This document shows positions 1 through 61,450 of a stretch of DNA of 64,000 nt, piece by piece. The position numbers and the translations under genes are program-made. Each line of letters starts with the position of its first letter. Position 1 is the first letter of the stretch. The stretch lies in the IMG/VR virus record IMGVR_UViG_2740892439_000009, one strand, 5' to 3'. Source of the stretch: a virus. Lineage: Duplodnaviria > Heunggongvirae > Uroviricota > Caudoviricetes. The notes under the pieces were generated by a model that saw only the letters and a program-made list of their open reading frames with translations, ran no database searches and was not told where the DNA came from.

Positions 1-3000
1 GCCGGCAGTTACGTGATCGCGCATTACAAAGCCTTCGTGAAAGTCAATGCTGATACCACCATCACTATGGCACCAGGGTCTCGTGTTTTTGATGATACGG
101 GCGCCGTGTACGTGAACGGTGTTAGGGTTGCCTTTGGTAATGCGAGCTGGAATACGGTTAGCTTTGATCTGAAAGCTGGCTGGAGCACGGTTGAGTTCTT
201 GGTGAACCAATGGACTGGTCAGGCTTACATTAACCTCGGCTTTAAACTGTCCGAGAAGGTAGCCCAGCTGAATTCTGCTCTTGGGATGAACGCGCTTTCG
301 AATGCCATTAGCGCCGTCACCTCAAACGTCAGCACCGTAGGTGATCGCGTCACGAGCACCTCACAGAGCGTTACTGACCTGCGAAATAGCCTCGAACAGA
401 CCAACGCAAATCTAGCGAATAAGGCAGATGCACAGGCGCTGTCTACGCTGCAAAATACGGTCTCCAAGCAGGGGGATACGATTTCCAGCCAGGGTAACAG
501 CATCACGAACCTGAATAACACCCTGACCGCTGCCAGAAACGCCGGTGACAACCTGATCCCGAACTACGATTTCCTGCAGGGTGCAACTGCGTGGGATATC
601 CAGTATCCGGCGGGCGTCGCTTTTGGCAACTTCGGTGATGGTAAGGCTGGGGTTAAGCTGAACCGGACGACCACGACCAGCCCAGGCATCTTCTCCAACA
701 ACAACAAGCCGCTGCCGCTTAATGGTCAGCGCAAATATCGTGTTGTGGTTAAAGCCAAGGGCGTGTCCGGGGCGATGAACATGTTGATCCGGCGCCAGAA
801 CAAAATCGGCCAGACCGACAGCAATTATGAAGATAAAAACGTCACACTCACCAGTGAGTGGCAGACCATTACCTGGGAAACTGGGCTTACTGCCTCTAAC
901 GCTGATGGTCAGAACTTTAAGCTTTACGCGCACCCGGCTAATGCCGAAATCTGGGTTGATACCTTTAAGGTCTTTGATATCACGGATGAGGTGAAGATCA
1001 AGGCTAATAGCGATGCGCTGTCTACGTTGTCGAGCACGGTGACGCAGCAGGGTGACAAGATCACCAGTCAGGGCAACAGCATCACTAAGTTGACCAATGA
1101 CCTCGAAGTCGCTGACGCAAACATCGCGAAAAAGGCCGATCAGTCGGCAGTCACTACGCTGACAGGTCGGGTAGAGAAGACGGAGTCCGGTCTGACGGCG
1201 GCGAACAGCAACATTACGTCGCTCAGCAGCTCTCTGAACCAGCAATCCAAACGCGGCGCCAATCTGCTTCCTGATGGCACTTTTGAAAGCTACGCGGTTG
1301 GCCATAATCTATCAAATAATCGCGTTATCGTGACCACTGATGACTCGCATGGCGGTAGTAAGTGCATCCGTGTGACGCGTCCGAATGATTACAACGCTAA
1401 CGCAACTGATAACAGCGATAATCACATTTTCAGCGGGTTCCAGGTTCGCGATAACGCAGTCTTCTATATGGAATGCTGGGTTAAGCTGGATGCCAAGAGC
1501 ACCGCTATGGCCGAGAATGCGCAGATCTCCATTGGCTTGTCGCTCCAGTATCAGGATAACTCCTGGCAGTGGCCAGCAGTAACCAAAGCGGCGAAAGATC
1601 TGTCTACAGCTCAATGGACGAAGGTTTCTGGTTACCTGAAATCAACGAAGAGCGGTATTAAGCAGGCAATGGTGAGGATTTCTATTCCTAACGTTAGCAG
1701 CGTTAAGGCGGGAAACTCATTCCTCATTGATGACCTGGTCATTACCGAAGTGACTGATGCCTACAATGCGCAAAGTACAGCAGACGCTAATGCCAATGCG
1801 ATTTCGACACTGGACTCGACCGTCTCCCAACAGGGTGACCAGATCACCAGTCAGGGTAACAGCATCACCAAACTGACAAATGACCTGGCAACGACCAATA
1901 ACAACGTCAGTAAAAAAGCGGATCAGAGCGCTTTAAGCGTGTTGTCCGGGCGCGTCGATCAAACAGAATCGGGCTTATCCTCTGCGAATAGCAGTATCAC
2001 TGCGCTTAATTCATCTGTACGCGCAGGGAATGCGACAAGTGGCGATTTGATTAGCAACCCGACATTTGACCCAGAGTTTAGTCAGATGGGCTTCACTGTG
2101 GTTTCCAGCTCGTCTGAGGGCGTGCCAGCCAATTGCCCATACGCTTATGTTGCACGCATTGCGGCTCGCGACCATCACCCCAATTTTGCTGCTATTCCGG
2201 CGACATTGGGGGATGTCTATGAAATGTCTGCTCTCGTCGCGTGTGGCACCGGCTCCGCTGATTTCAACCTGTATCTCGGAACCGCAACACGGCCAAGCGG
2301 CAGCGTGGGCGCGCCTCTGTCATCCGGCGGCAACCGCAAGGCGTCGGCCACATGGCAGCGAGTAACCTGGCGATTCAAAATTACTCAGGGGATTGTCGAT
2401 CGCGGCTTCTTCCGTCCATTCCTGCAAATTAACCAGTCCAGCCCATTCGGCACCGTCTGGTATGTGACTGACTGGCATCTGCGGAACGTGACCGACTCCT
2501 CCAAAGTCCAGGATTCCCTCGACGCCACGGCGAAAGCGGTTGATTCGCTGACCTCTACGGTAAATCAGCAGGGGGAGAATATCTCCAGCATTGGTACACG
2601 TACTACCAATCTTGAGAATAATTTGAGAACAACAAATGCAAACGTTGCTCAAAAAGCGGACGCCAATGCTCTGACGGCACTGACCAACCGTGTTACCCAG
2701 ACCGAAAAAGACATTAACTCAACGAGTTCTTCTGTCACGAATCTGAACAACAAGGTTGATGCCATTTCTGTTGGCGGTACAAACCTGATTAAGAACTCTG
2801 GCGATATGACCGGCTGGTCGAACGTTACCAGCGACACGTATCGTGGTAACGCGGTAATTGGCGCAACTGTAAAAGCCGGCTCCGGCTACAAGGATCTGCG
2901 GGAAATCACGCTTGAGTCGCCGGTCGATGCAGGTGAGTACGTTTACAGCTTCTATGCAAAAGGCGGTGTTGCTGGCCAGATTATGACGGCGTTCTTCTAC

Positions 3001-5424
3001 AATCCGAACACTACAACGTCTATCGAGACCAGCCAGGGTGCGAAAGGTAACAACAGTGATGGCCGTGCGCAGTTCACGCTGACCACTTCATGGTCCCGCT
3101 ATTGGGTTAAGTGGAAACAGACACCTACCACGAGTACCAAGCGCCTGATTCTGTGTCGTATCGAGAGCAATACCTCCAAAGACCAGACGGTGTACATCAA
3201 CAGTCCGAAGTTTGAGGTAGGTAACGTTGTTTCCGACTGGAACGAGTCTCCGTCTGATAGTGCCAGTGCGTCGGCTGTGGACTCGCTGACAACGAAAGTG
3301 AATCAGCAGGGCACTTCCATTAGCTCTATCGGAAATCGCACCACATCGTTGGAAAACGGGTTATCGACAGCTCAAAACAATATTGCCAAGAAGGCTGATG
3401 CTTCTGCATTGCAGGATCTCCGGAACACGGTGACATCTCAGGGTGATGATTTAACTGCGGCGAACAGCAGCATTACCAGCCTGCATGCCTCGATGAACCG
3501 TCGCACTGTGTTTACTGTCACTGCACGGGGTAATGGCAACAGCGTTACCCATGGGGTGTTTGATGAAAGCGGCAAGAATCTGTTTACCCCTGGTCGCAGC
3601 TGGGCGCTGGTCACTTTTGCAAAACACAGCGACGGATCAACGGTGATTGCGACCTCCAAAACATACGATGTCTTTGGCAGCGCGAATAATGGCGCCACGA
3701 TGTCGGCTGATATCGAGGCACTGGCCAGTGGGACTTACGTTTGCGTCCTGACATTCGATGAGCCAACTGGCAACCGAGGTAAGGTGTTGTCTGCCCTGGA
3801 ATCTCTTGGTGGCACTTCCGAAGTCGTTAACTCTCTGCCGTATCGTGGCGCCTACATTCTCCTTGGCCGCAAAGGTATGAAGCCGGGCGATGGTCTGGAA
3901 CTGCGTGCGCCAACCGGTGGCGACGGCACCGCCCACATTTCGACCTCAGTCGAGTTTGTGAACGGGGTAATGATGGGGCTGGGCGCCGCTGGTGGTGTGA
4001 TGATGAAGGCTGATGCGAACGCATCTGCAATTACCACGCTCCAGAATACAGTGAAGACCCAAGGGGATAATATTGACTCCCTGAGCTCCTCGACAACAGC
4101 GCTGGAAAACAGCCTTGCGTCCAGTAACGTCAGCGTGGATGCAGCAAGCCAGATCCCCGGTAACCTGATCGTAAACCCGTCTTTTGAGCGTGGTACGGAG
4201 GGCTACACTGGTTGGAGCGGTATTGCCACGGTGGCAACGCTGCAGGTTCCACATCTTGGCACCAAAGCCGCCAAACTAGCGGCGGGTGGTTCTGCAGGCG
4301 TGGGCCAGAAGATCTCCTTCAAAAAGGATCGGTCGTACAAAATTGGTATTTGGGCAAAGCAGGACCCTAATACCACCATTCAGTCGACCGACAACACAAA
4401 ATTCCGTGTGGCTGACGGTACTGGCCTGATTGCAAGTAAGGTTTATGGTCCGTTCACCTCGAACTGGCAGGAGGTGTCATGGACATGGAAGGCGACAAAG
4501 GATGTCCTTGCTGACGTTCAGTTCACTGCTTTCTTGTCAGCCGGCGCGATGTACTTTGATGATTTTTACGTCGTCGATGTGACCGACTCAGTTGAAACTC
4601 AGGCGAACTCGAGTGCGATCACGAAGCTCGATAGTCGTGTGACCAAGACAGAGAATGACATCACCAGCCAGGGCAGCCAGGTTACGCAACTTAAGAATGA
4701 CCTTGCTACCACAAACACAAATGTTTCGAAGAAAGCGGATGCAGCTGCGTTAACGGCATTAACGAACCGCGTCACGCAGAATGAGAAAGAAATTGGAACC
4801 CAGAGCAGCCAGACAACTTCGCTCAAAAACTCTTTGAGCACTGTTCAGGCAATGGGAAGCAACCCGTGGTTTGATGGTTCTCTGGAGACGTACTCCGAAA
4901 ACCAGCAGATCAGCGGCTCGCGCGCGGTCGTCGTCAGCTCTCAGAAACGAAGCGGAACGAAGTCGTTGCGTGTTTCCCGCGGCGCCGGTGAGGGCGGAAA
5001 CAGCGATAAAACCATCGGTAAGTGGATTGCTCTGCGTGAAAATGCGGTATTCCGCATTGAACTCTGGGCGATGATGCCGGCAGATCAGTCGCCATCATCC
5101 GGGTGGTCAACGCTCGTTGGTTTGCAGACCCAAAACGCTGCCAACAACAATAACTGGCCGACGGCAATCACTATCAATGAAGCCGCATTGGGTGCAAGAG
5201 GCGCATGGAAGAAATTCACCGGTACGCTCCGTGTAGCCGCTGGCCACACTCGCGGCGCATTTTGGGTATCTACCGCGGCACAACTGGCACTGGTACACCG
5301 GGGTATGATCTGTATATCGATGACGTTGTTGTCACCGATATCACCGACGCAAAAGAGGCTCAAGATTCGGCTAATTCGAACGCATCCGCGCTCACCAGCC
5401 TTACCTCACGTGTTACCAATGTAG
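1..5424 (+). CDS. Lateral (L-shaped) tail fibre protein, LtfA-like; 5'-partial upstream segment, frame lost near 5270
   Basis: Frame open from base 1. About 8 diverged tandem modules, each with a coiled-coil stretch (QQGDxITSQGNSITKLTNDL..KKADQSAL) followed by a beta-rich domain ending in (F/Y)xDDxxVxDVTD. The last ~50 codons of this frame look like nonsense. Confidence 0.75.
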   Translation, partial: AGSYVIAHYKAFVKVNADTTITMAPGSRVFDDTGAVYVNGVRVAFGNASWNTVSFDLKAGWSTVEFLVNQWTGQAYINLGFKLSEKVAQLNSALGMNALSNAISAVTSNVSTVGDRVTSTSQSVTDLRNSLEQTNANLANKADAQALSTLQNTVSKQGDTISSQGNSITNLNNTLTAARNAGDNLIPNYDFLQGATAWDIQYPAGVAFGNFGDGKAGVKLNRTTTTSPGIFSNNNKPLPLNGQRKYRVVVKAKGVSGAMNMLIRRQNKIGQTDSNYEDKNVTLTSEWQTITWETGLTASNADGQNFKLYAHPANAEIWVDTFKVFDITDEVKIKANSDALSTLSSTVTQQGDKITSQGNSITKLTNDLEVADANIAKKADQSAVTTLTGRVEKTESGLTAANSNITSLSSSLNQQSKRGANLLPDGTFESYAVGHNLSNNRVIVTTDDSHGGSKCIRVTRPNDYNANATDNSDNHIFSGFQVRDNAVFYMECWVKLDAKSTAMAENAQISIGLSLQYQDNSWQWPAVTKAAKDLSTAQWTKVSGYLKSTKSGIKQAMVRISIPNVSSVKAGNSFLIDDLVITEVTDAYNAQSTADANANAISTLDSTVSQQGDQITSQGNSITKLTNDLATTNNNVSKKADQSALSVLSGRVDQTESGLSSANSSITALNSSVRAGNATSGDLISNPTFDPEFSQMGFTVVSSSSEGVPANCPYAYVARIAARDHHPNFAAIPATLGDVYEMSALVACGTGSADFNLYLGTATRPSGSVGAPLSSGGNRKASATWQRVTWRFKITQGIVDRGFFRPFLQINQSSPFGTVWYVTDWHLRNVTDSSKVQDSLDATAKAVDSLTSTVNQQGENISSIGTRTTNLENNLRTTNANVAQKADANALTALTNRVTQTEKDINSTSSSVTNLNNKVDAISVGGTNLIKNSGDMTGWSNVTSDTYRGNAVIGATVKAGSGYKDLREITLESPVDAGEYVYSFYAKGGVAGQIMTAFFYNPNTTTSIETSQGAKGNNSDGRAQFTLTTSWSRYWVKWKQTPTTSTKRLILCRIESNTSKDQTVYINSPKFEVGNVVSDWNESPSDSASASAVDSLTTKVNQQGTSISSIGNRTTSLENGLSTAQNNIAKKADASALQDLRNTVTSQGDDLTAANSSITSLHASMNRRTVFTVTARGNGNSVTHGVFDESGKNLFTPGRSWALVTFAKHSDGSTVIATSKTYDVFGSANNGATMSADIEALASGTYVCVLTFDEPTGNRGKVLSALESLGGTSEVVNSLPYRGAYILLGRKGMKPGDGLELRAPTGGDGTAHISTSVEFVNGVMMGLGAAGGVMMKADANASAITTLQNTVKTQGDNIDSLSSSTTALENSLASSNVSVDAASQIPGNLIVNPSFERGTEGYTGWSGIATVATLQVPHLGTKAAKLAAGGSAGVGQKISFKKDRSYKIGIWAKQDPNTTIQSTDNTKFRVADGTGLIASKVYGPFTSNWQEVSWTWKATKDVLADVQFTAFLSAGAMYFDDFYVVDVTDSVETQANSSAITKLDSRVTKTENDITSQGSQVTQLKNDLATTNTNVSKKADAAALTALTNRVTQNEKEIGTQSSQTTSLKNSLSTVQAMGSNPWFDGSLETYSENQQISGSRAVVVSSQKRSGTKSLRVSRGAGEGGNSDKTIGKWIALRENAVFRIELWAMMPADQSPSSGWSTLVGLQTQNAANNNNWPTAITINEAALGARGAWKKFTGTLRVAAGHTRGAFWVSTAAQLALVHRGMICISMTLLSPISPTQKRLKIRLIRTHPRSPALPHVLPM

Positions 5425-10971: not shown

Positions 10972-10976
10972 AAATA

Positions 10977-11002
10977 AGGCGACTTTGGTCGCCTTTTTTG
11001 TT
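10977..11002 (+). terminator. Rho-independent terminator
   Basis: GGCGAC..GTCGCC hairpin followed by TTTTTT. Confidence 0.6.
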
Positions 11003-11147: not shown

Positions 11148-11816
11148 ATGACCAAGATCTTTGTGGTTGGCGGCACAAAGGGCGGGCCTGGCAAATCCAC
11201 CGTTGCCCAGCAAATTGCCGTTTGCCTGAAAGTCAAAAAGAAGAAGAAGGTTTATATCACCGATATAGATATTCAGCGCACGACAACGAGCTGGTGTGAA
11301 GACCGTCGACAGAACGAAGACCTTGAGCTGATTCCTTTTGCATACGTTCAGGATGACATCATTAAGCACCTAAAATCGCTTCAGGGTAGAGCTGAGTTTG
11401 TAGTGGTAGATGCTGGTGGCTTCGACTCCGAAATTCAGCGACAAGCGATGCTGATGGCTGACGTTATCATTATCCCGCTGCGTCCTAAGCGTCGTGATTT
11501 GAAATCTTTACGTGACATCGATCCTATTATCGACAATGTTCGCAATGTAAACGATAAAGTGAAGGTCCGCGCGGTCATGAACCAGTGCCCGGCTTTGCCA
11601 TCACAAGTGTCTCGCATTCTGGCGGCTAAAGAGATTGTCGAGACGTTTGGCATCGAGTCTGCGCCAGTCAATCTATATAACCGCAACGTCTACGATGATG
11701 CGGAAGAGTCTGGTCGTTCTATCTTCGAAATGACCGGTAGCGAGCGCGACAAAAAGGCGGAAGCCGAGTTTGAAGAATTTGTAGATTATCTGTTGAGTCT
11801 GGAGGAAGAAGAATAA
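11148..11816 (+). CDS. parA: ParA-family partition ATPase (small, type Ib)
   Basis: Deviant Walker A GGTKGGPGKST; size about 220 aa; followed by a small RHH-like gene. Confidence 0.8.
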   Translation: MTKIFVVGGTKGGPGKSTVAQQIAVCLKVKKKKKVYITDIDIQRTTTSWCEDRRQNEDLELIPFAYVQDDIIKHLKSLQGRAEFVVVDAGGFDSEIQRQAMLMADVIIIPLRPKRRDLKSLRDIDPIIDNVRNVNDKVKVRAVMNQCPALPSQVSRILAAKEIVETFGIESAPVNLYNRNVYDDAEESGRSIFEMTGSERDKKAEAEFEEFVDYLLSLEEEE

Positions 11817-12175: not shown

Positions 12176-12219
12176 TTTTATTGAGGTGCTGCTTGGCACC
12201 TCTTTCTATAGGTTCCCTA

Positions 12220-12939
12220 ATGCTCTACAAATATATTGGAAGTGAAGATTCGCAAAAAGTGTTACGTAACCTCAAACGGTTTGTAGAGGACGGCACTATC
12301 TCTGCTAGCGCACCTTCTTCATTCAACGACCCATCAGAGTTCAAAGTTTCGATAACGATGGGAGGTACAGAAGTGGAGCGCCGGAAACACTTTGAAGACA
12401 ATGGATGTAAGGATTTTTCCTTTGAAGACTGGGATGCTGTAGCTCCTGAAGCTGCAAAATCGTTGGCTGTGGATTTGCGGAAAGAATCATTAGGGGCTTT
12501 TGGTGTGGTGTGCTTGTCACCAAACGAAGATAACATCTTGATGTGGTCACATTACTCAGTGTCGCATAAAGGTTTCTGCATAGGCTTTGATGATGATTTT
12601 GTTACCTCTATTGAGGGGTATCACAGCTTTGATAATGTGAAATATATACCTTCTGTTCCCGTGTTCGATGAAGTTACAGATGAGTTTAAGGTACTTTTTG
12701 ATAAGCTCTTTTTCTACAAGCACGAATGCTGGAAATATGAGGAAGAACAAAGGGTTATTACTAAAAAAATAGGCGCTCAGGCATTTGATAAGAAATATAT
12801 TAGAGAGATCATTCTTGGACATAACGTTTCTCCTGAAGTAGAAGAATATGCCCGGACACAGCTAGACACGAGCATCGAGGTTTACAAAATGAGTACACCT
12901 GATGATGGTTATCTTCTTGTCAAAGAAAAGCTGAAGTAG
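12220..12939 (+). CDS. DUF2971-like protein
   Basis: N-terminal LYKY..FNDPSEF signature as recalled for DUF2971; AT-rich relative to flanking genes. Confidence 0.4.
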   Translation: MLYKYIGSEDSQKVLRNLKRFVEDGTISASAPSSFNDPSEFKVSITMGGTEVERRKHFEDNGCKDFSFEDWDAVAPEAAKSLAVDLRKESLGAFGVVCLSPNEDNILMWSHYSVSHKGFCIGFDDDFVTSIEGYHSFDNVKYIPSVPVFDEVTDEFKVLFDKLFFYKHECWKYEEEQRVITKKIGAQAFDKKYIREIILGHNVSPEVEEYARTQLDTSIEVYKMSTPDDGYLLVKEKLK

Positions 12940-13005
12940 CTCCAGACTTTCCTCAAATGATTATGTTGGGCGCTTTTCTTATTGAACTGGTTAGTGAGGC
13001 TAATA

Positions 13006-14178
13006 ATGGATTTGTTCTCAACCAAAATAGCAAAAAACAAGCTGCACGAATCTTTTAAACAGATTTATCAAGATAATACATATGCTCCAGTAAGAGAAGT
13101 GATACAGTCGTGGGGGCGTGGGTTACTGGAGCGTAGCGGTGAGCAGACTAAATTCGTTAAAGAGTTTCAGACAACCTTCAATTCCGCCTTATGGGAATTG
13201 TATCTGAACGAAATGTTTATTCGTCTCGATTATTCTGTCGACTACACAAAAGACAGTCCCGATTTCTGTGTTACTACACCGTCAGGCTACCAGTTTAACG
13301 TCGAAGCTGTGATATCAGATCGGCCACATAATCCACCTGCAGGTGCTCTTTTTAGCGAATCAAAATTCAAACATCAATCAACGCTAAAATTAATCGGAAA
13401 AATCAAAGACAAACATGATCTTTTTACAGGAGTTAATGGCAAAAAATTCCCGTACTCTACGATGTCTCATGTAGTTAATAAGCCGTTTGTTCTGGCGCTT
13501 GCACCCTTTGACTCCGATTTATCATTGTCTCAAAATAACACAATCATCAATCGAGTGTTGTTTGGCATTGAGGAACCTACCACCAGAAATTTGGTGACTG
13601 GCAGCCAAACTAAAGTTACCTCAATCAAAAAGAATGAAGACGTTGAAATTCCATTAGGTATATTTACTAACGACTCATATAAAGAAATAAGTGCGGTTAT
13701 TTTCTCCACCACCGGCACTTTTGGAAAAGCCGTGGTTCAAAGCGGTATCGGTAGATATGTAAGGTCAACACGATATCGAGCCATTGATGTGAATGATTTC
13801 ATCGCCAATGAAGGGATGAAAAACGAGGGAAAGCACACACAAAGGATAGGACCTGATCATTTCATCACTACATATCGGCATTTTTTAAATAACGAAGTCA
13901 CTGGTGCGGATATTGTAGTTTGCCATTCCACTGCTCATGAAGAGACGCACTTTGACGGCCTTCATATTTACTACAATCCTTTTGCGACAGTGCCACTGGA
14001 CAGAAATATTTTCTTCCCCCCAGAGATAACTCATAATTTTTACGATATGGAAAAAGAACAGTCTGTTCAGAATCATCCTGATGGAGCGCTGGTATCTAGA
14101 CAGGTTTTTGAACCAACTAGAGCACATTTTAGGTATATCATGAAACATTGGTTTCCAGGCTTTCTAAAAGATGTTTAA
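13006..14178 (+). CDS. Hypothetical protein (about 390 aa) in AT-rich island
   Basis: ATG with GAGG upstream; no recognisable motifs; low GC. Confidence 0.5.
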   Translation: MDLFSTKIAKNKLHESFKQIYQDNTYAPVREVIQSWGRGLLERSGEQTKFVKEFQTTFNSALWELYLNEMFIRLDYSVDYTKDSPDFCVTTPSGYQFNVEAVISDRPHNPPAGALFSESKFKHQSTLKLIGKIKDKHDLFTGVNGKKFPYSTMSHVVNKPFVLALAPFDSDLSLSQNNTIINRVLFGIEEPTTRNLVTGSQTKVTSIKKNEDVEIPLGIFTNDSYKEISAVIFSTTGTFGKAVVQSGIGRYVRSTRYRAIDVNDFIANEGMKNEGKHTQRIGPDHFITTYRHFLNNEVTGADIVVCHSTAHEETHFDGLHIYYNPFATVPLDRNIFFPPEITHNFYDMEKEQSVQNHPDGALVSRQVFEPTRAHFRYIMKHWFPGFLKDV

Positions 14179-14195: not shown

Positions 14196-14265
14196 TTTGG
14201 AACCTGCTTCTGTATATAAATACTAAGTTACTTATTATTATTTATACGGAAGCAGGTCTTTTTCT
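14196..14265. repeat. Palindromic element CTGCTTCTGTATATAAATA..TACGGAAGCAGG (second copy near 61041-61105)
   Basis: 9-bp inverted repeat arms around an AT-rich core containing TATAAATA; followed by a T tract. Confidence 0.6.
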
Positions 14266-14366
14266 ATGCCAACTTCCCAGACACATTCCCTTCCGTTTCC
14301 ACTTCCAAAAACTGCCACCAGTCGCTATCATCCGCTCATTGCAATAAGTAAGTAACTACCTATCGG

Positions 14367-15116
14367 GTGAGCCACATGAGCCAAATCTTTTTTGATACCA
14401 TTGACAACGACCAGTACGACTTCATGACAGAGTGGAATACCGCTGTTATGGACAAGTGGGTCGCTGAAAACATTGGTTTGTCGCGCTGCAAAGACGAGGC
14501 TGAACTCTTCGAGACGAAGTGGTTTGATTACCGCGATATGCATCCTCTCATGGCCACCTGTCTGTTTACGGAGGCGTACAAACGTCAGTACTCAAATATC
14601 ATGCTGACGCACGGTCGCGAACACTTTGAAACAGCTCCGTTCACCACCGGGTTAAAACGCCTGCCTTATCAGGAGTTGTCGACTGCCAATAAAACGTCGC
14701 TATGGAAAGCACGCCAGTTTGCTGATCGCTATTGCTGTTCATACGACTACTTTATCTCCACGGTTCTTTCCGCAGCTGCACGGCGTCTGTGGGACAAGTT
14801 GCCGCGCCCACAGCATTTATGGCAGCCAGAACTGATTGAGATATTCGAAGAGAAATTATCCAGACGCGCAACAACCCGTCTGGATGACTCTCTGGTTAGC
14901 TTTAAGCATATGGGAGACATGCAGTTCAACCCGATTCAGGAAAGCTATTTTGAGTGGATTCTGGAGCGTTTGCGCATCATCCCCCGCAGCAAGCGCATAC
15001 GCGCAATTTTCTCTGCTATCTGGCTAATGGAAATCGTTCCAGAGCGCCTTATTTCCGCCCACTTTCCAGAAGAACTGGAAGAAGCACGGCGGTTTATTGA
15101 TCCCCTATCTAATTAA
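14367..15116 (+). CDS. Hypothetical protein immediately upstream of the helicase
   Basis: ORF with GTG/ATG start following an intergenic inverted-repeat motif; no recognisable motifs. Confidence 0.5.
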   Translation: MSHMSQIFFDTIDNDQYDFMTEWNTAVMDKWVAENIGLSRCKDEAELFETKWFDYRDMHPLMATCLFTEAYKRQYSNIMLTHGREHFETAPFTTGLKRLPYQELSTANKTSLWKARQFADRYCCSYDYFISTVLSAAARRLWDKLPRPQHLWQPELIEIFEEKLSRRATTRLDDSLVSFKHMGDMQFNPIQESYFEWILERLRIIPRSKRIRAIFSAIWLMEIVPERLISAHFPEELEEARRFIDPLSN

Positions 15117-15159: not shown

Positions 15160-16098
15160 ATGACCGAACTTTGCCATACAGGACGCGGGCTGTCCGAAGA
15201 GTTTGATGAAGATTTCCAGAACAGACTGACGGCATATTTTTGTCGTGATCACGAGTTTCTTACTCGTGCGGGAGATCTGGTTGTGCCTAGCCAATTTGCC
15301 AATGCGGCCAATGCCATATTGGTTAATATGGTTTCGGGCTATTACCGTATGTACAAGAGCGCGCCTTCTTCATCTGCGATTCTGGATATGCTTAAGCGCG
15401 CGAAACGCGATAAGACCATCCGTGAGGAACTCTTCCCGGATGTTGTTGCTGCGTTTAAGCGCATCCTTGCAGAAAAATTGTCTGATACCTCGTACATGGT
15501 TGACCAGGTATCCACATTCGCAAAAAGTGTAGCGTTTGATGATGCTCTGATTAAAGCTGCTGAACTGAAAGAGAAGGGCGACTTTCAGGGGGCGATGGCA
15601 ATCATGGCCAAGGTTCAGCAGATAGGCTCGAACGAAGCGACCGGAATCTATGACTACTACACCTCCGCAAGTGAGCGATTGAAAGCGCGTGAATATGAGG
15701 CTTCAGAGGAGTATGTGCCAAACAGCATTACAACTGGACTCCCTCTGCTTGATAGATTGCTGTACCAAAAAGGCTGGGCGAAGCGTGAAATGGTGCTCTT
15801 CATGGGGTTCGCTAAATCCGGTAAATCGACCGCAATGGGTGAGTTTTCCATAAACGCAACACTTGCTGGCTACAATGTTCTGTATCTCTCGCTGGAGGTT
15901 CACACCACCATTTTATCCGACCGTTTTGATGCAAGATTGTCGGAGACAGAAATGTCCAGGCTGGTGGAACGGCGCGATGAGGTTCATCGTAAGTTGGCAG
16001 AGTTGGGAGCACGAAGGGGATTGGTAGTTTGTGGGTGGTTGAGCGTCCGTCAGGAAGTATGTCACCGGCAGATCTGGACCGTATGCTTAACAGCATGA
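15160..16098 (+). CDS. DnaB-like replicative helicase, N-terminal segment with Walker A (frame lost near 16020)
   Basis: ITTGLPLLDRLL..GFAKSGKST resembles the DnaB Walker A region; conserved start context AAAGGAAAGCACATG. Confidence 0.75.
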   Translation: MTELCHTGRGLSEEFDEDFQNRLTAYFCRDHEFLTRAGDLVVPSQFANAANAILVNMVSGYYRMYKSAPSSSAILDMLKRAKRDKTIREELFPDVVAAFKRILAEKLSDTSYMVDQVSTFAKSVAFDDALIKAAELKEKGDFQGAMAIMAKVQQIGSNEATGIYDYYTSASERLKAREYEASEEYVPNSITTGLPLLDRLLYQKGWAKREMVLFMGFAKSGKSTAMGEFSINATLAGYNVLYLSLEVHTTILSDRFDARLSETEMSRLVERRDEVHRKLAELGARRGLVVCGWLSVRQEVCHRQIWTVCLTA

Positions 16099-31106: not shown

Positions 31107-31285
31107 TCGTGCGTAAAGGATGTTTCGGCTCTCTTATCGCTGCTTCTGAAACTGGTAAGGCTTGTCTGGTGTGTCCAGACAAGCCCGATTGTCACCAATC
31201 AGCAAAAGAAGTTGCGATTTCGATGCATGGGAAGTTCGTAGCTTCCCCAATGACAAAATCAAAAAAACCAGAAAGGTAAAAACAC

Positions 31286-34200
31286 ATGAAGGCACTGATG
31301 GTTCGAACTGACTTCTCACTTGGGGAGTCGGCTTTAAAAGCAGAAAACGCGGTGAAGATTGCCAGAGAAGCTGGCTACACCGCTGTAATTTCAGCAGATA
31401 GCATGAATATTGCGAGCGTTATTCCACTACAACGTGCCGCTGGTGACGACATGGCGGTTATTTGTGGTGTGAAACTAAACATTGTTGATGATCCCACATA
31501 CGAGCACCGGGTTAAACTTGCTAAAGAATCTATGAGATGTATGGAATCATTAGAGCGGGGACGTAACTACTCGTTTACCGCTCTAATTAAAAATGAGCAA
31601 GGATATCGCGACATCTGCGAACTAATGACGGTGGCCAACACACGAGAACAGTTCTACTTTGTACCGCGTCTCTCGCTCGAACAGTTGGTTTCTACATATG
31701 CCAAAGGCAACATCATCCTGCTCACTTCCGACATCGGTAGCGTGTTCCAACGCAACGATTTTGCAAAAATCATAAGCTCACTGATTACAGCGGGCGGGAA
31801 AGACAACTTCTATAGCGTGGTTTATCCGCACCCTACCCCATTCTACGACCAGATTAACGTCCGGGCGATGAAAGTCGCCAGCGCATTGAAAATAGAGCCA
31901 GTGGCGTTCTATCCCGCTTATTACGAATCGATCGACGATGCAGACATTAAAGACATTGCGCACATGGTTACGAACAACATAAAAATCGACCAGCCGCATC
32001 GTCTGCGTATCCCCCACCAGCGAGATAACGCCATCAATGGTCGTCGCCATCTCCTTGAGGCGCTTAAAGCCTTCTCCGTTCGCATGGATGTGCCGGTAAC
32101 AGCTGCAATGGCCTCAACAACGCAGGACTCCATTATCGATGCCTGCACATGGCGCTGGCATGAATTGCCACCAGCACTGCCCAAGATGGCAGACGACGAA
32201 CCTGCAACGCTGATGAAACTGGCTGTTGCAGGGCTGCGTAAACGTCTTACCACAAAAGAGTTTGGATACACACCACCTGCTTCTGAGAACAGGGTTTATG
32301 TTGAGCGGCTAAAGTACGAAATGGACACGCTGACTCGCCTGGGATTCTGTGGTTACTTCCTGATGGTACGCGATCTGATGAATCACAGCCGTGAAACTGG
32401 CATTCCTGTCGGGCCTGGTCGTGGTTCCTCTGCCGGTTCTCTGGTGGCGTGGTGCATAGGCATAACCAACGTCGACCCAATCCGTCACGGTCTTCTGTTT
32501 GAGCGTTTCATCAACCCTGAGCGTCTCGACTTGCCGGATGCGGACTTGGACTTCAGCCAGGCACGTCGCCATGAGGTGATCGAGTATCTGAATGAACGCT
32601 ACGGCGAAGATTACGTTGCAGGCATTCCGAACTTCACCTATCTGGGCGCGGCATCTGCGCTGCGTGACACTGCACGTATTTACGGTGTCGATGCTGCGGA
32701 TATGGCGGTATCCAAAGAGTTCAAGAATATGGAGGACGACAGCCTGTCTCTGGAAGAGCTGCGCGAGCAACTGGCCAGCCTGGACAAATACGCCACGAAA
32801 AACCCGGAAGCGTTCAAAGCGGCGTGTAAGCTGCAAAGCCTGATGCGTGGTTTTGGTCGTCACGCTGCGGGGATGATCGTCGCTGGCGTTCCATTAGTAG
32901 AGCGCACGCCCGTCGAGCTGCGTGGCAATGCTCGATGTATTGCGTTCGATAAACGTTACTGCGAGGCGATGGGGCTGATTAAGTTGGACGTTCTCGGTCT
33001 GGCAACACTCGATCTTCTGGATAGCGCGAAACGCTACATCAAAGAGAGTACCGGTGAATACATCAATCTCGACGCTATCCCACTGGACGATCGCAAGGTT
33101 CTGGATGGGTTCGCTGCAGGGTACACGCAGGGCGTATTCCAGCTGGAGTCCGGCCCCATGCGTAAGCTGCTTAAAGATCTGGGCGGTGGCATCGAGCCAA
33201 TGAGTTTCAAAACCGTTGTCGCAACTACCGCCCTCTTCCGACCGGGACCGATTCAATCCGGCATGTTGGATGACTATGTTTCCGTTGCGAAAGGATTTAT
33301 GACGCCTACATCACTACATCCTGTCTTGGATGAACTGACCTCTGAAACAAATGGAGTGATTCTCTATCAGGAACAAACGATGAACGCAACAAGGCTTCTT
33401 GCTGGTTTCACAATGGCCGAGGCGGATGGTGTGCGTTCAGCAATCGGTAAGAAGAACATGGAAAAGATGAGGAGCATGGGTGAGAAATTTGTCATTCAGG
33501 CTCAAGCTGGGTGGATCGACGTAGAGCTTGAAAATGGCGCAATACAACGGATTCATCGCGCAGAACATTTTAAATGCGAGGACGGTACTCTGAGGACAGT
33601 TGAAGAGGCGTTGGAGCATGGAGTGAAGCTGCCAATGCCAGTTGTGCGCGTTACAACGTCACATCCAGGTCTGTCTGAGACGAAGGCAAAAGAGATATGG
33701 ACTGCATTTGAGAAAAACGGAGCCTATCAGTTCAATAAATCACACTCCGTTGCTTATTCTTTAATCAGTTATCAGTCTATGTGGCTAAAGACGCACTACC
33801 CTGCTGAGTTCTTCGCAGCTGCGCTCACCATTCTGGGCGAGGATAAGCATCAGGGGCTGGTGAAGGATGCGCTGACCTATGGCATTCGCGTATTGCCACC
33901 AGACGTTAATGTGTCATCTAACCGAATTGAGATCCGCACACTCGAAGACGGCAGTCAGGCACTGTATGCGCCATTCTCTGCTGTGAAAGGCTGTTCTGAA
34001 AATGGTTGTCAGGCAATTATGCGTGCGCGTGAGAAAGTTGGTGGCAAATTCGAGTCAGTGGCACAATTCGATGAAGCGGTCGAGAAGCGTGCATGTAACA
34101 GTCGTGTACGCGAGTCGCTTCATAAAGTAGGGGCTTTTGCGTCAATTGAGCCAGGCAGTCTGCCAGCAACTGATCCTGAACGACTGCGCGACCAGGCTGA

Positions 34201-34836: not shown

Positions 34837-35107
34837 AGAATTATGGCGCTTGTTGAGGAAGTCACTCCTCTTACGCACTTTGTTTTGCCATGCCGGCAGT
34901 TAGCTTCTGCCTTTGACTATTCATGCGGCAACCCCGCATTTCGCCACAATGGGCAATTCACTTTTATGGAATAAACTGGCCGTTGTGTCGATTTAATTAG
35001 CATGGCCTTACCATGCTAATTTATTCAACTTGTACAATCCTACAAATCTATCCACTCAGGCTTACACCGTCTTCGTTATTGTAGAAATGAGGATCATCAG
35101 CGTTGAA

Positions 35108-35323
35108 TCAGCTTAGAGCAACGACATTTGCTGCTGCTGGGCCTTTAGCCCCATTCTCGATAGAGAATTCGACCTGCTGGCCTTCTTCCAAAGTGCGGAA
35201 ATTATTACTCTGAATTGCCGAAAAATGTACAAAAACATCTTTACTGCCATCAGCAGGAGAAATAAAGCCAAAGCCTTTATCAGAGTTAAACCATTTTACT
35301 AAACCAGTCATTTTATTAGACAT
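35108..35323 (-). CDS. cspA: Cold-shock protein, CspA family
   Basis: [38 protein letters not shown] is near-identical in pattern to E. coli CspA; SD AAGAAGG; long upstream leader; terminator-like hairpin near 34995-35020. Confidence 0.85.
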
Positions 35324-35652
35324 AGATATTACCTTCTTAATTTTGTGAGCCACATAGTGCGGCGAGAATTTGATCTGTATAGATTGGGACTTACTTAGGC
35401 ACTTAAGGAGGAGACTCACGAAGAAGGGAAATCAGAAGATAACACTGAACTGAGACTGCTTTACTAAAACTGCTTACATAAGGTCTGTCTTGCAAACCAA
35501 CGATGCTATTAACGCATACCCCTTCTTTTCATGCAACCTTTATTTTTCAAAGATAACTAATTTTTGTCACCATTGGTTTAGTAAACGTTAACGAACCAGA
35601 CGATGCCAGACACCTTTACAGAGAACAGATGCCCGCCAATTGGCGGGCATCA

Positions 35653-43461: not shown

Positions 43462-43996
43462 CACCGCTGACAGCATACACAATCAACTACCGCTGATAGC
43501 ATATCGAGAGTCTATCTCACCGCTCACAGCATACTTTACTCGATTTTTTACCGCTGACAGCATACTTAAGACATTGCATGAATAATGTGTACCGGTATGG
43601 GTATAACCAGAACAAAATTACCGCTGGCAGCATACGAAGGTCTGACATATGCCATTAATTACCGCTGATAGCATATCCAAACAAAAATTCCTCAATAAAA
43701 CACCGCTGACAGCATACATTCTATCAGAGAGTAGCAGGCAATAAATGCCTTTCACTACAAGCAATCAGCGCAATAGCAATAGAATGTTAGTGAGCGCAAA
43801 CCTATATGGAATGCACTCTTCGAGGTTAGTAACCACTGGGGAGGTATGACAGAGCATTGAGTGGTGATAGATGATTTACCGCTCACAGCATACGTTCATC
43901 TCACTATACCGCTGGTAGCATATCTTTAACCGTTCACAGCATACTTTTCAGAAAAATAGCCGCTGATAGCATACATTTCACCGCTGACAGCATATC
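43462..43996. repeat. Iteron array downstream of repA (incA-like): about 12 copies of ACCGCTGACAGCATAC
   Basis: Direct repeats with variants (CTGATAGCATAT, CTCACAGCATAC, CTGGCAGCATAC) at irregular 20-45 bp spacing, interrupted by a 150-bp repeat-free gap. Confidence 0.85.
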
Positions 43997-45089
43997 AAAG
44001 CAGTTTGAGACTATTGGAAAGGATCTCAATCATCTTGATATTTTCAGGCGTCAAATTCTGCGAAAGTTCAGTTATCTTGTTGATAATGTTCTGTTTGGCA
44101 TCAATTTCCCCGGCTTTCTCATCTGGTTTTTTGGGTTCGATGTCTTCAGGTTTTGGCGGTGCGACTTTGAGTTTTGGATTGCGGCTGTGAATCTGGATAT
44201 AGATCGACCGCCCACGCTTAATCTCGCTGTATTCGAGATAGCCCAAATCTTGGAGAGCTTTTAAGCCGTTACGTATAGTCTGATTCTGCGAGCTGACATT
44301 CCTGCTACTCAAATTGAGTCGCGCACGCAATCGAGCAAGCGATACCGGCGCAGGCTTGGTTGGAAGACTTTCGATGAAGGTGTACAGAGCCTGTGCTGTT
44401 TCTTTGCGTGGTAGCTTATTGATAACCTTTAACTGCAAAAGAACCTTATGGTCAAAGCGATATAGTTCGGCCAGCTTCGGTTCTGCATAGAACACCACCG
44501 TATCTTTCTGCTCGTTGTAGTCCACGCTATTGATGAGGTGCACCATCAGAAGCGAGATCTTGTTAGAGCCGTCGACGTTCTTTTCTTCATACGTTCTCTG
44601 GAAAGACAGAGTTGTACGCATGATCTTCAAAAGACTGTTTGTAAGCCGGTCGCGGAGTGTTTTGCGGATCTGTGACGATGGATAGCCACAAAACTTCGCA
44701 AATTTCGTGATGCTTAACTCGACACGACCATTAGGTTCGCCGTATTCTGCCAGCGAACGCACAACGCCCACCCACGTTTTGAAATCATGATCCATGTCCA
44801 GGCGAGGACCGGTTATCTTGATATCGGAATAGCCTTCAGAACGGGCTACTTCGAGCTGGACAAGCTCCTTTGAAGCATCGATCTCATTTGGCTTGTTACG
44901 TTTACTGTATTTTGTTCCCTTAAGCGTGGGGACGAACAACCCCAGTCGCATCAACGCAATTGGTTGGACTGTATTGTTGCTATTAGGGACAAGTTCCCCT
45001 GTGTACAATTCAAGGGAACCTTCTTCAAAGTTGTCGATGTTATCTTCTACTTCTTTGTTATTTTTACCTTTTTTATTTTTTGTGGACAT
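43995..45089 (-). CDS. repA: Iteron-binding replication initiator RepA (P1/RepFIB family)
   Basis: NSNNTVQPIALMRLGLFVP, GYSDIKITGPRLDMDHDFKTW and IHSRNPKLK match the P1 RepA pattern as recalled; flanked by iterons on both sides. Start placed at the internal ATG because the longer ORF would run across the origin iterons. Confidence 0.85.
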   Translation of the reverse strand: MSTKNKKGKNNKEVEDNIDNFEEGSLELYTGELVPNSNNTVQPIALMRLGLFVPTLKGTKYSKRNKPNEIDASKELVQLEVARSEGYSDIKITGPRLDMDHDFKTWVGVVRSLAEYGEPNGRVELSITKFAKFCGYPSSQIRKTLRDRLTNSLLKIMRTTLSFQRTYEEKNVDGSNKISLLMVHLINSVDYNEQKDTVVFYAEPKLAELYRFDHKVLLQLKVINKLPRKETAQALYTFIESLPTKPAPVSLARLRARLNLSSRNVSSQNQTIRNGLKALQDLGYLEYSEIKRGRSIYIQIHSRNPKLKVAPPKPEDIEPKKPDEKAGEIDAKQNIINKITELSQNLTPENIKMIEILSNSLKLL

Positions 45090-45109: not shown

Positions 45110-45211
45110 ACCGCTGACAGCATACTTGATTTGCCGCTGACAGAATACCAAAAACAGTTGGCAGCATACGGTGAACCGCTGACAGACTATCAATTACCGC
45201 TGACAGCATAC
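45110..45211. repeat. Origin iterons upstream of repA (incC-like): 4-5 copies of ACCGCTGACAGCATAC
   Basis: Same 16-bp repeat family as the downstream array. Confidence 0.8.
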
Positions 45212-45249
45212 ATGAACATGGCTTCAGACCAGTCGTGGCGCGGCTTACA

Positions 45250-60258: not shown

Positions 60259-60440
60259 CGTTCCCCTACTTAAAATAAAGCCCATAGAGAGCTTTATAGT
60301 GCTGGGTAAGCTAACCCATACCCAGCACCACAAAAACGCGCCAGAGAGCTTCTTGTTCGCATTTCTGGCGCGTTTTATTTGATTGCCATACATAAAATCA
60401 AATGCAAAAATAGGTAATCACTTACCTATCGAGAAAGAAG

Positions 60441-61034
60441 ATGATTGCAGCCGAAAAAATCAAACAGCGAAAGCGCGACAACTCTCTTCGTGACCTCTGG
60501 AGAACACCTGATTGGCTGTTTTCTGCCATTCAACGTTATCTTGGAGTGACATTTGATGTTGACGTTGCCTGCAACAAGGACAATGCAAAGCTGCCTAATT
60601 TCATAGGCGTTGAGCGCGATGCTTTGAAATCTGAATGGGGACAGCCAGGTACAATTGCCTTCCTCAATCCACCCTACTCCAAAATCTCCCCCTGGATTGA
60701 TGCTGCTATACGTGAGCAGGCTCGCGGAGTTACAACAGTGATGCTAATTCCTCAATCCCTCGATACAAAGTGGTATGAGCGTGCAACAGAGTATGCGAAT
60801 GAGACGATTATTCTGTCTGGTGGCCGCGTAGCGTTTGTCGAGCCTGACGTCAATTTGGGTCAGGTAGAAGTAAACATCAACCCCGGTGGCAGTATGCTCG
60901 TTGTTTTTCGAGGGTTTTGTCAGGACGCTGGGCACTCTATAAGCAAGATCCCTTTGGACGTCATGAAAAGTCTGGGAGGGTATGACCCTGCGAATGTGAT
61001 CAGGAAAAAAAGACCATCAAAGAAGGCTGCTTAG
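60441..61034 (+). CDS. DNA N6-adenine methyltransferase, phage Dam family
   Basis: WRTPDWLF and NPPYS motifs. Confidence 0.7.
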   Translation: MIAAEKIKQRKRDNSLRDLWRTPDWLFSAIQRYLGVTFDVDVACNKDNAKLPNFIGVERDALKSEWGQPGTIAFLNPPYSKISPWIDAAIREQARGVTTVMLIPQSLDTKWYERATEYANETIILSGGRVAFVEPDVNLGQVEVNINPGGSMLVVFRGFCQDAGHSISKIPLDVMKSLGGYDPANVIRKKRPSKKAA

Positions 61035-61219
61035 TTTGCTCTGGCGTCTGTAATTAGCTGCTTCTGTATATATAAATAACTACATATTAATTATTAATAT
61101 ACGGAAGCAGGCTGTTTTGTATCAGAGACTCCCAGACCTGAACATCACTACAGAATCCACTAGAACCCCTTCCCAGACGCTTTAAAATCGATTTTATGAA
61201 CCACTTTAAGGAAACCAAC

Positions 61220-61450
61220 ATGTCATACCCGACTAATGTCGTTGCGCTCGTAGAGAGCGATTTTCTGGCCCAGGCTCGTGAAATGATGAAAGATCGTGAG
61301 CAGGCTTTCAACTTGTACGAGTGGGCAATTAAGTGCTTGCATCTTGGCGAGCATCGCGAACTTGTTGAACAGCTTTTAGGTGAGTTGATCAATGAGGTGT
61401 TTGCCTTGAATGTTCAACTACATGGTCGAGAAAATAATCAATCACAATGA
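61220..61450 (+). CDS. Hypothetical small protein
   Basis: 77-aa ORF with AAGGAAACCAACATG context. Confidence 0.4.
   Translation: MSYPTNVVALVESDFLAQAREMMKDREQAFNLYEWAIKCLHLGEHRELVEQLLGELINEVFALNVQLHGRENNQSQ

Follow-up and report, generated by a model that had tools for sequence, protein, structure and literature searches.

Phage-plasmids of the SSU5/pHCM2/pMT1 type are common among clinical Enterobacterales, their cargo includes resistance, toxin and defense genes, and to our knowledge their regulatory layout is essentially unstudied. Phage T7 has several long, imperfect hairpins in its intergenic regions that are processed by RNase III, and the linear phage-plasmid N15 has four scattered inverted-repeat centromere sites, which are bound by SopB. 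The PeSLs of T4-type phages are promoter/terminator cassettes mediating modular shuffling (PMC2839356, PMC4122927).

The window, which is the whole 64-kb stretch of DNA analyzed here, comes from a phage-plasmid of the SSU5/pHCM2 type, with 96-98% identity to Escherichia phage Cyrano (pLF82) and CMS-2020a and about 76-82% identity to Salmonella phage SSU5 and the Klebsiella relatives. It has a long near-palindromic hairpin at two sites, locus A and locus B, and the reading favored here, with moderate confidence, is that each of these is a one-directional intrinsic terminator/insulator at a block boundary, specific to this family and acting also as a recombination anchor. A literature search on SSU5, pHCM2 and Cyrano, with the SSU5 genome announcement outside its scope, found no description of the element, which is most likely an undescribed and family-specific yet fairly ordinary kind of signal.

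Structure and Position of the Hairpins

The sequence-only reading of the window had described a palindromic element in two copies, each following a gene stop and accompanied by a T tract, and this is borne out by the sequence, the exact arm matches and the z-scores of the predicted folds. The elements are placed as follows.

14203-14256, + strand, core of hairpin copy 1 (locus A), CCTGCTTCTGTATA...TATACGGAAGCAGG around an AT-rich near-palindrome
14257-14265, + strand, T tract TCTTTTTCT, directly 3' of the copy 1 stem
61057-61112, + strand, core of hairpin copy 2 (locus B), defined by arm matches and fold
61113-61120, + strand, T tract TGTTTTGT, directly 3' of copy 2

The arms of both copies are 13 nt long, CTGCTTCTGTATA and TATACGGAAGCAG, and are located at 14204-14216 and 14243-14255 in copy 1, where a flanking C and G complete the core, and at 61058-61070 and 61098-61110 in copy 2. 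The 26-27 nt between the arms are nearly all A+T and are themselves near-palindromic in both copies, so that the arm stem runs on into an AT-rich inner stem and the whole of about 53 bp forms a near-palindrome. Arm pairing extends over 13-14 bp including one T:G in both copies, and this stem with its AT-rich continuation replaces the 9-bp stem proposed originally; the core of the second copy begins at about 61057 and not at 61041. In the 64 kb, exact matches to the 15-mer CTGCTTCTGTATATA and to the 14-mer TATACGGAAGCAGG are limited to the two hairpins, and an arm search allowing up to 3 mismatches gives no degenerate copies in the window beyond these two. Folding of the + strand RNA yields -24.2 kcal/mol (z = -6.4) for copy 1 and -20.7 kcal/mol (z = -4.1) for copy 2, with 0 of 200 shuffles folding as well as either, and the mean fold of 49 distinct hairpin cores is -19 to -25 kcal/mol. 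Rfam at the gathering threshold assigns no family to either hairpin locus. The motif TATAAATA, which the earlier reading had placed inside the hairpin, is found in both copies at 14215-14222 and 61071-61078, and three of its four occurrences in the window are inside the two hairpins with one outside. Resemblances to other known sites are judged coincidental: that to the T4 MotA box (TGCTTyA) is probably so, the loxP-like arms (CTTCGTATA / TATACGAAG) are separated by a 25-30 bp spacer incompatible with a tyrosine-recombinase core, and the half-sites resembling a LexA box (CTGT-N8-ACAG) are about 35 bp apart.

Gene direction is nearly uniform across the genome, and copies 1 and 2 both lie inside runs of + strand genes. 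The upstream stop codons (TAA at 14176-14178 for copy 1 and TAG at 61032-61034 for copy 2) are separated from the hairpins by 23-25 nt, and the next + strand genes begin with ATG at 14376 and ATG at 61220, respectively. Locus A follows the par/cargo genes and precedes the DnaB-helicase/primase module. The partition region contains the ParA gene (11148-11816), a 119-aa partner and two cargo genes, with no obvious centromere-like repeats upstream of parA. Locus B is placed 23 nt past the stop of a Dam methyltransferase gene (Dam Pfam E = 2e-38). Copy A is thus downstream of parA and its 119-aa partner, and copy B is near no par gene.

The complete Cyrano genome contains exactly three hairpins, at 31160, at 78085 and across the ends of the linear record before terS. 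The copies at 31160 and 78085 are the orthologues of window copies 1 and 2, and the third defines locus D, which lies between the last gene and terS and falls outside the window. The description of the element as present twice holds for the window but not for the complete genome, going by this close relative with its three copies. The virion-derived SSU5 record (JQ965645) starts and ends in the middle of hairpin D (positions 4960-5000 of extracted piece L219 and 1-20 of L218), and the Cyrano record (OV696614) breaks at the same point, in the center of the locus D hairpin upstream of terS; other phage records begin elsewhere. The Cyrano start most likely matches that of SSU5 because the plasmid-derived record was oriented to SSU5, and the break itself may represent either an assembly break at the palindrome or a virion DNA end. 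Nothing on the SSU5 virion ends was found in the literature searched, whose scope did not include the SSU5 genome announcement.

Sequences outside the core are also shared between the copies, and the downstream flanks contain the following features.

14275-14282, + strand, TCCCAGAC motif, about 18-19 nt past hairpin copy 1
14283-14375, + strand, highly conserved leader of the first replication-module gene
61130-61181, + strand, conserved leader after copy 2, with CCAGA(C/A) motifs at 61131, about 61152 and 61172 followed by a -10-like TAAAAT

The TCCCAGAC motif also occurs about 18 nt past copy 2, and relatives frequently have its mirror image, GTCTGGGAG, to the left of the hairpin, extending the palindrome to about 100 bp with the layout GTCTGGGAG-N12-hairpin-N12..30-CTCCCAGAC. 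The CCCAGAM motif is enriched only beside the hairpins, with no window-wide enrichment. The leader at 14283-14375 contains CCAGTCGCT (14318-14326), a -10-like TATCAT (14326-14331) and a 20-bp operator-like palindrome (14344-14363), and is near-invariant among the E. coli, Salmonella and Klebsiella relatives, the flanking coding DNA being about 79-82% identical, and it may carry a promoter. Downstream of copy 2 the CCAGA(C/A) boxes are about 21 bp apart and the leader at 61130-61181, to which a function is tentatively assigned, is conserved between genera.

Conservation of the Three Sites

IMG/VR scans for loci A, B and D were anchored on the conserved flanks, with the arms not used, and the hairpin is present in 94 of the 94 distinct sequences recovered (31 for A, 34 for B and 29 for D). 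Orthologues of locus A comprise those of Cyrano, SSU5 and pJN2-26 together with the 31 distinct IMG/VR loci, and orthologues of locus B those of SSU5 and pJN2-26 together with the 34 distinct loci. The search of a complete genome and of relatives for further copies has thus added the third copy (D) in Cyrano and found every orthologous locus occupied, and the possibility that only two copies exist, with no counterpart in relatives, is set aside by this very strong conservation. When one genome is scanned for each bacterial species, the hairpin is present only in SSU5/pMT1-type replicons of Enterobacterales (Kluyvera, Buttiauxella and Yersinia pestis), plus one MAG, which is probably mis-binned.

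Relatives with 65-79% protein identity have identical arms and a different AT loop, among loci that were retrieved via the arm pattern itself. Distant relatives with TerS 59-65% identical have a hairpin followed by T5-T8 at locus D and canonical GC hairpins with T runs at loci A and B, indicating that termination at these positions is kept though the sequence is not and that the stop signal is older than the present sequence. No recognizable copy is found upstream of terS in the Aeromonas and Acinetobacter relatives (TerS about 30% identical).

Covariation in the stem is not significant, with 94.2% of cells paired compared with 94.5% in shuffles, two compensatory stem pairs and a covariation score that is matched by 482 of 500 shuffles. 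The mismatches in the stem include both G:U and C:A types, and some cores are inverted. The more stable strand in RNA folding varies by locus with no consistent advantage of the + strand, and this inconsistency makes the strand preference unusable in an argument for RNA or DNA.

Transcription across the Hairpins

At locus A the 9 nt located 3' of the hairpin contain 5-8 T in 28 of the 31 distinct sequences and 4 T in the other three, and at locus B 6 of the 9 are T in 24 of the 34 distinct sequences, with 3-4 on the opposite side. The asymmetry is common to A and B, the coding-strand side being T-rich and the opposite side having mostly 3-4 T of 9. The coding strand at locus D has only 2-4 T of 9, i.e. 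no T tract.

The RNA-seq of the Cyrano lysogen (PMC9928086, S1 table) places ParA, CYRAN_29 and CYRAN_30 at log2(fpkm+5) values of 5.2-10.8. At the gene level CYRAN_30, just before locus A, has values of 5.7-10.4, and CYRAN_31, located 193 bp downstream across hairpin A, has 2.3-4.2 in all ten samples with a floor of 2.32 (PMC9928086). This corresponds to a drop of roughly at least 60-fold in most conditions, at the gene level and in lysogen samples only. Gene-level expression across locus D in the same lysogen falls only about 1.2- to 4-fold. Both neighbors of locus B are silent in the Cyrano lysogen, which makes the RNA-seq uninformative for this copy; a slight rise is seen from CYRAN_79 to CYRAN_80 across it. 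A simple terminator scan calls neither hairpin because the loop and inner stem are beyond the limits of its rule. The bidirectional terminator suggested by the sequence-only reading is retained as a terminator in the + direction only, given the T tract on one side and the RNA-seq drop at A, and the bidirectional part is not.

All members of the SSU5/pHCM2 type have the three hairpins at the same boundaries between gene blocks. In the proposed mechanism, the 13-14 bp arms and the AT-rich inner stem of the + strand transcript would fold into a long hairpin with an energy of about -20 to -28 kcal/mol, and with a U tract directly after the hairpin at A and B the RNA polymerase would terminate factor-free, presumably leaving an RNA 3' end at the U tract. 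Copy A would end the par/cargo operon expressed in the lysogen and would block read-through into the repressed replication genes, which also have an operator-like palindrome in front, and a separately controlled lytic promoter may follow terminator A. Termination probably occurs at copy B also, where it would play the same role between the dam block and the following block. The hairpin would then provide three fixed landmarks splitting the genome into transcription blocks, and hairpin A would account for a lysogen-expressed par/cargo operon being placed directly upstream of repressed lytic replication genes.

Copy D, with no T tract and a small expression drop, indicates that the conserved hairpin is not simply a terminator everywhere. 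Plain termination also leaves unexplained the inverted GTCTGGGAG/CTCCCAGAC flanks and the constant orientation of TATAAATA at all loci, and the arm sequence is conserved far beyond what a terminator would need.

An ordinary short terminator is present upstream of parA at 10972-10999, with GGCGAC-TTTG-GTCGCC (stem from 10978) followed by TTTTTT, showing that the genome uses conventional terminators too, unrelated to the repeated palindrome.

Probable Recombination between Copies, and the Cargo Slot

The region to the left of hairpin A is variable between relatives, and in the window it is occupied by the following genes.

12181-14178, + strand, slot of variable cargo, bounded by the par operon and hairpin A
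12181-12939, + strand, PDC-S31/DUF2971 gene (PADLOC E = 4e-38)
12982-14178, + strand, PD-T7-5 defense gene (PADLOC E = 1.5e-139)

Similarity of the window to Cyrano, SSU5 and the Klebsiella phages begins at about 14202, which is the base of hairpin A, and the left flank of this locus is a mosaic junction with a left neighbor that changes from relative to relative: it can be a PD-T7-5-like gene, a DUF2971/PDC-S31 gene or a set of small ORFs, or can be missing altogether. The presence of different genes in relatives at the position of 12181-14178 identifies the region as a cargo/defense hotspot, of which hairpin A is, by comparison of the relatives, the constant right edge, and there is no hairpin copy at the left edge of the slot. 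The slot genes appear to be co-transcribed with par, as are CYRAN_28-30 in the Cyrano lysogen. Copy A would in this arrangement be a fixed right-hand anchor at which accessory and defense genes are swapped, and marking a constant edge of a slot for defense genes such as PD-T7-5 makes it useful for annotation and for finding new cargo.

In four genomes locus A has the same core sequence as locus D, and private variants are common to A and D in a fifth. In the K. michiganensis plasmid NZ_CP056140, loci A and B share a different AT-rich repeat of about 55 nt, located at 4066-4180 and 31575-31700 (numbering of the extracted piece L232), and a repeat that differs from the usual one yet is shared by A and B implies that the copies co-vary between lineages, via gene conversion or a shared factor. 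The copies have about 50-100 bp of near-identical sequence and are therefore likely to recombine with each other (concerted evolution), and homogenization rather than a binding factor presumably keeps them alike. The suggestion of a small mobile or recombinogenic repeat fares differently in its two parts, the mobile part being contradicted by three fixed sites with 94 of 94 occupied, and the recombinogenic part being upheld in the evolutionary sense by the identical A/D cores and the mosaic left flank. In the same K. michiganensis plasmid, which is degraded and IS-rich, a separate canonical terminator hairpin comes after each repeat of about 55 nt, and short outer inverted repeats enclose the whole.

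Alternative Functions of the Hairpin

The location of TATAAATA raises the question of a promoter embedded in the hairpin, with TATAAATA or TATAAA in the 5' half serving as a -10 element of the T4-late or sigma-70 type, so that transcripts started in the loop would be without the left arm and would escape the terminator. The motif is present on the coding strand in 25 of 31 distinct sequences at A, 33 of 34 at B and 21 of 29 at D and is far rarer on the other strand, a TATATAAATAT-like stretch persists at D in distant relatives with a degraded palindrome, copy 1 has TTGAAT 18 nt upstream of TATAAA, and the slight rise across B from CYRAN_79 to CYRAN_80 points the same way. Against this, tblastn of Cyrano and the window, at BLAST-level sensitivity, finds no homologues of T4 gp55 or gp45 (E = 0.57 and 2.7 at best; gp55 has no usable Pfam model), no sigma factor is annotated in Cyrano, and TATAAATA is nearly confined to the hairpins, with a single copy outside them in the window. 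The -35 position falls within the non-conserved left flank, a sigma-70 scan of the + strand gives no promoter in or just after either hairpin, Cyrano copy A lacks TATAAATA on the + strand, and CYRAN_31 past copy A is at the detection floor in the ten samples, under lysogen conditions only. The T4-late promoter of the sequence-only reading is accordingly not supported, and an embedded promoter of any of these types is considered very improbable. A MITE-like non-autonomous mobile element inserted at several places would have terminal inverted repeats, as the hairpin does, and in E. coli-type genomes the two flanks of locus D look similar to an imperfect direct repeat of short length (GCTTATTTAAAGAC / GCTTAGTAAGAC). 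The element is, however, always at the same three syntenic sites with empty sites in 0 of 94 distinct orthologous loci, and there are no copies elsewhere in Cyrano or outside the plasmid family in the scan of one genome per species. The lack of presence/absence polymorphism and of any non-syntenic copy argues that it is not mobile, and this origin is regarded as extremely improbable.

Alternatives that retain the hairpin as a signal in its own right concern its recognition as RNA or as DNA. An RNA signal other than termination, being either a duplex cut by RNase III to leave a protective 3' hairpin or the target of an antiterminator or RNA-binding regulator (stem plus A-rich internal loop), would fit the interrupted duplex of about 22-25 bp with its AAA/AA internal loop conserved in many copies, the intergenic location within long co-directional gene arrays and the same orientation at all three loci. 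Copy D keeping the hairpin without a T tract and the conservation of sequence among copies, comparable with nut-type or RNase III sites, are also in its favor. The stem, however, has no covariation support, the + strand stability advantage is inconsistent, no Rfam family is found at the gathering threshold and no antiterminator was identified, making such a signal unlikely. The AT-rich center, with inverted arms and inverted GTCTGGGAG/CTCCCAGAC boxes on either side, could instead be a site in double-stranded DNA to which a phage-plasmid protein binds, such as a dispersed centromere, a lytic origin or recombination-initiation site, or a terminase recognition/cleavage site. The arms are conserved in sequence and not merely complementary, the palindrome reaches about 100 bp and CCAGA(C/A) boxes recur at intervals of about 21 bp, and variation between lineages is shared among the copies. 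Copy A in one relative directly follows the second par gene (119 aa, RHH-looking), copy D is placed just past two ParB_N-domain genes and just before terS, the SSU5 record ends in the middle of D (a chance of about 3 in 10,000 for a random break), and among the phage proteins are SbcCD-, RuvC-, UvsX/Y/W- and gp32-like ones, whose substrates are structures of this kind. One Klebsiella genome has three copies differing at arm positions 5-9, which is a poor fit to one sequence-specific binder, and the fixed orientation relative to transcription with a T tract at A/B is something a symmetric DNA site does not need. Variable-length cargo separates the par genes from copy A in most relatives, the TerL belongs to the Terminase_6N/Terminase_3 type, which is frequent in phages with headful packaging, a genome with three cos sites would be unusual, and the SSU5 break may equally be an assembly break; a protein-bound site is on this evidence a doubtful though real candidate. 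A broader and equally tentative proposal, to which slightly more weight is given, is that the three palindromes are not only terminators but cis-acting sites read by a co-evolving phage-plasmid factor. Copy D could be a terminase cleavage or recognition site, or alternatively the set could be lytic origins, recombination-start sites cut by SbcCD/RuvC and used by the T4-like replication-recombination genes, or a dispersed centromere in the style of N15 that couples partition proteins to gene expression. Such a factor would explain the conservation of arms and orientation, the lineage-specific shared repeat, the T-less copy D and the end of the SSU5 record, and if the copies are indeed recognized by a protein for packaging, origin or centromere function, a key cis-acting site of the family would have been identified. 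The protein-site and the RNA-processing or antitermination explanations are kept beside one-directional termination in view of the T-less D, the arm conservation, the lack of covariation, the extended palindrome, the oriented TATAAATA and the SSU5 record end.

Other Repeats and RNA Elements of the Window

Additional repeated motifs are dispersed in the window and are distinct from the hairpin.

8085, 14344, 24951, 37201, 40720, 46178, 50862, 60410 and 62622, 20 bp each, palindrome family ATAGGTAAG-NN-CTTACCTAT
11100, 15128, 27636, 41868, 53304, 63500 and 63520, 13 bp each, palindromic motif AAACAANTTGTTT

The dispersed 20-bp palindrome family has 9 copies compared with 0.02 expected, and at least two of these are located before gene starts, at 14344-14363 (gene at 14376) and at 60410-60429 (dam at 60441). 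By analogy with P1, where the C1 operators are scattered in this way, the family looks like the set of operators of a prophage repressor. The second palindromic motif, AAACAANTTGTTT, has 7 copies compared with 0.5 expected; the copies checked are 20-50 nt upstream of start codons (parA at 11148 and the helicase at 15160), two AAACAANTTGTTT-like copies precede terS in Cyrano and SSU5, and the motif is probably a promoter or regulator site. Direct repeats of TTACCGCTGACAGCATAC form two blocks at 43474-43998 and 45129-45214 with a spacing of about 21 and 41-51 bp, and are probably plasmid-origin iterons flanking the RepA gene in a P1-like layout as judged by Cyrano synteny, repA itself having not been located in the window.

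The only Rfam matches in the window at the gathering threshold are three tRNAs and a cspA 5' UTR thermoregulator, the latter a full-length match at 35083-35501 on the - strand (185.7 bits, E = 2e-49), so that the phage-plasmid apparently carries a cold-shock protein gene with an RNA thermosensor. Internal repeats of about 100 nt with spacings of 579, 738 and 783 nt occur at 424-3311, which should be the tail-fiber gene by Cyrano synteny, suggesting a modular repeat architecture of the fiber.

Comparison with Known Systems

Like intrinsic terminators, the hairpins at A and B have a stable stem-loop that lies 23-25 nt past the stop codon and runs directly into a coding-strand T/U tract, and RNA levels drop across A. 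They differ from the ordinary terminators of this genome in being much longer (about 53 nt) and in having an AT-rich upper stem and internal loops. Unlike in intrinsic terminators generally, the sequence and not just the shape is common to three paralogous sites and several genera, and copy D is without a T tract.

The likeness to the T7 RNase III hairpins is in the occurrence of several similar long imperfect hairpins between co-directional genes, whereas the T7 sites are without inverted boxes on their flanks and do not form near-perfect palindromes in the DNA over such a length. As in N15, a few palindromes are scattered in the genome of a phage-plasmid with one of them beside the partition genes. 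In contrast to N15, parA here has no ParB/SopB-type HTH partner next to it but a 119-aa protein with no Pfam hit, and the present elements are oriented and have T tracts.

The nearest described concept is the PeSL cassette, which likewise consists of repeated intergenic terminator stem-loops of about 50-100 bp. PeSLs edge variable accessory genes, as copy A does here, and recombination between copies is in both cases deduced from sequence. PeSLs have a consensus sigma-70 early promoter, whereas none is detectable here, and they occur in tens of copies in hyperplastic regions compared with three copies at fixed syntenic sites. The PeSL stem is polyG/polyC and the present one is an AT-rich palindrome.
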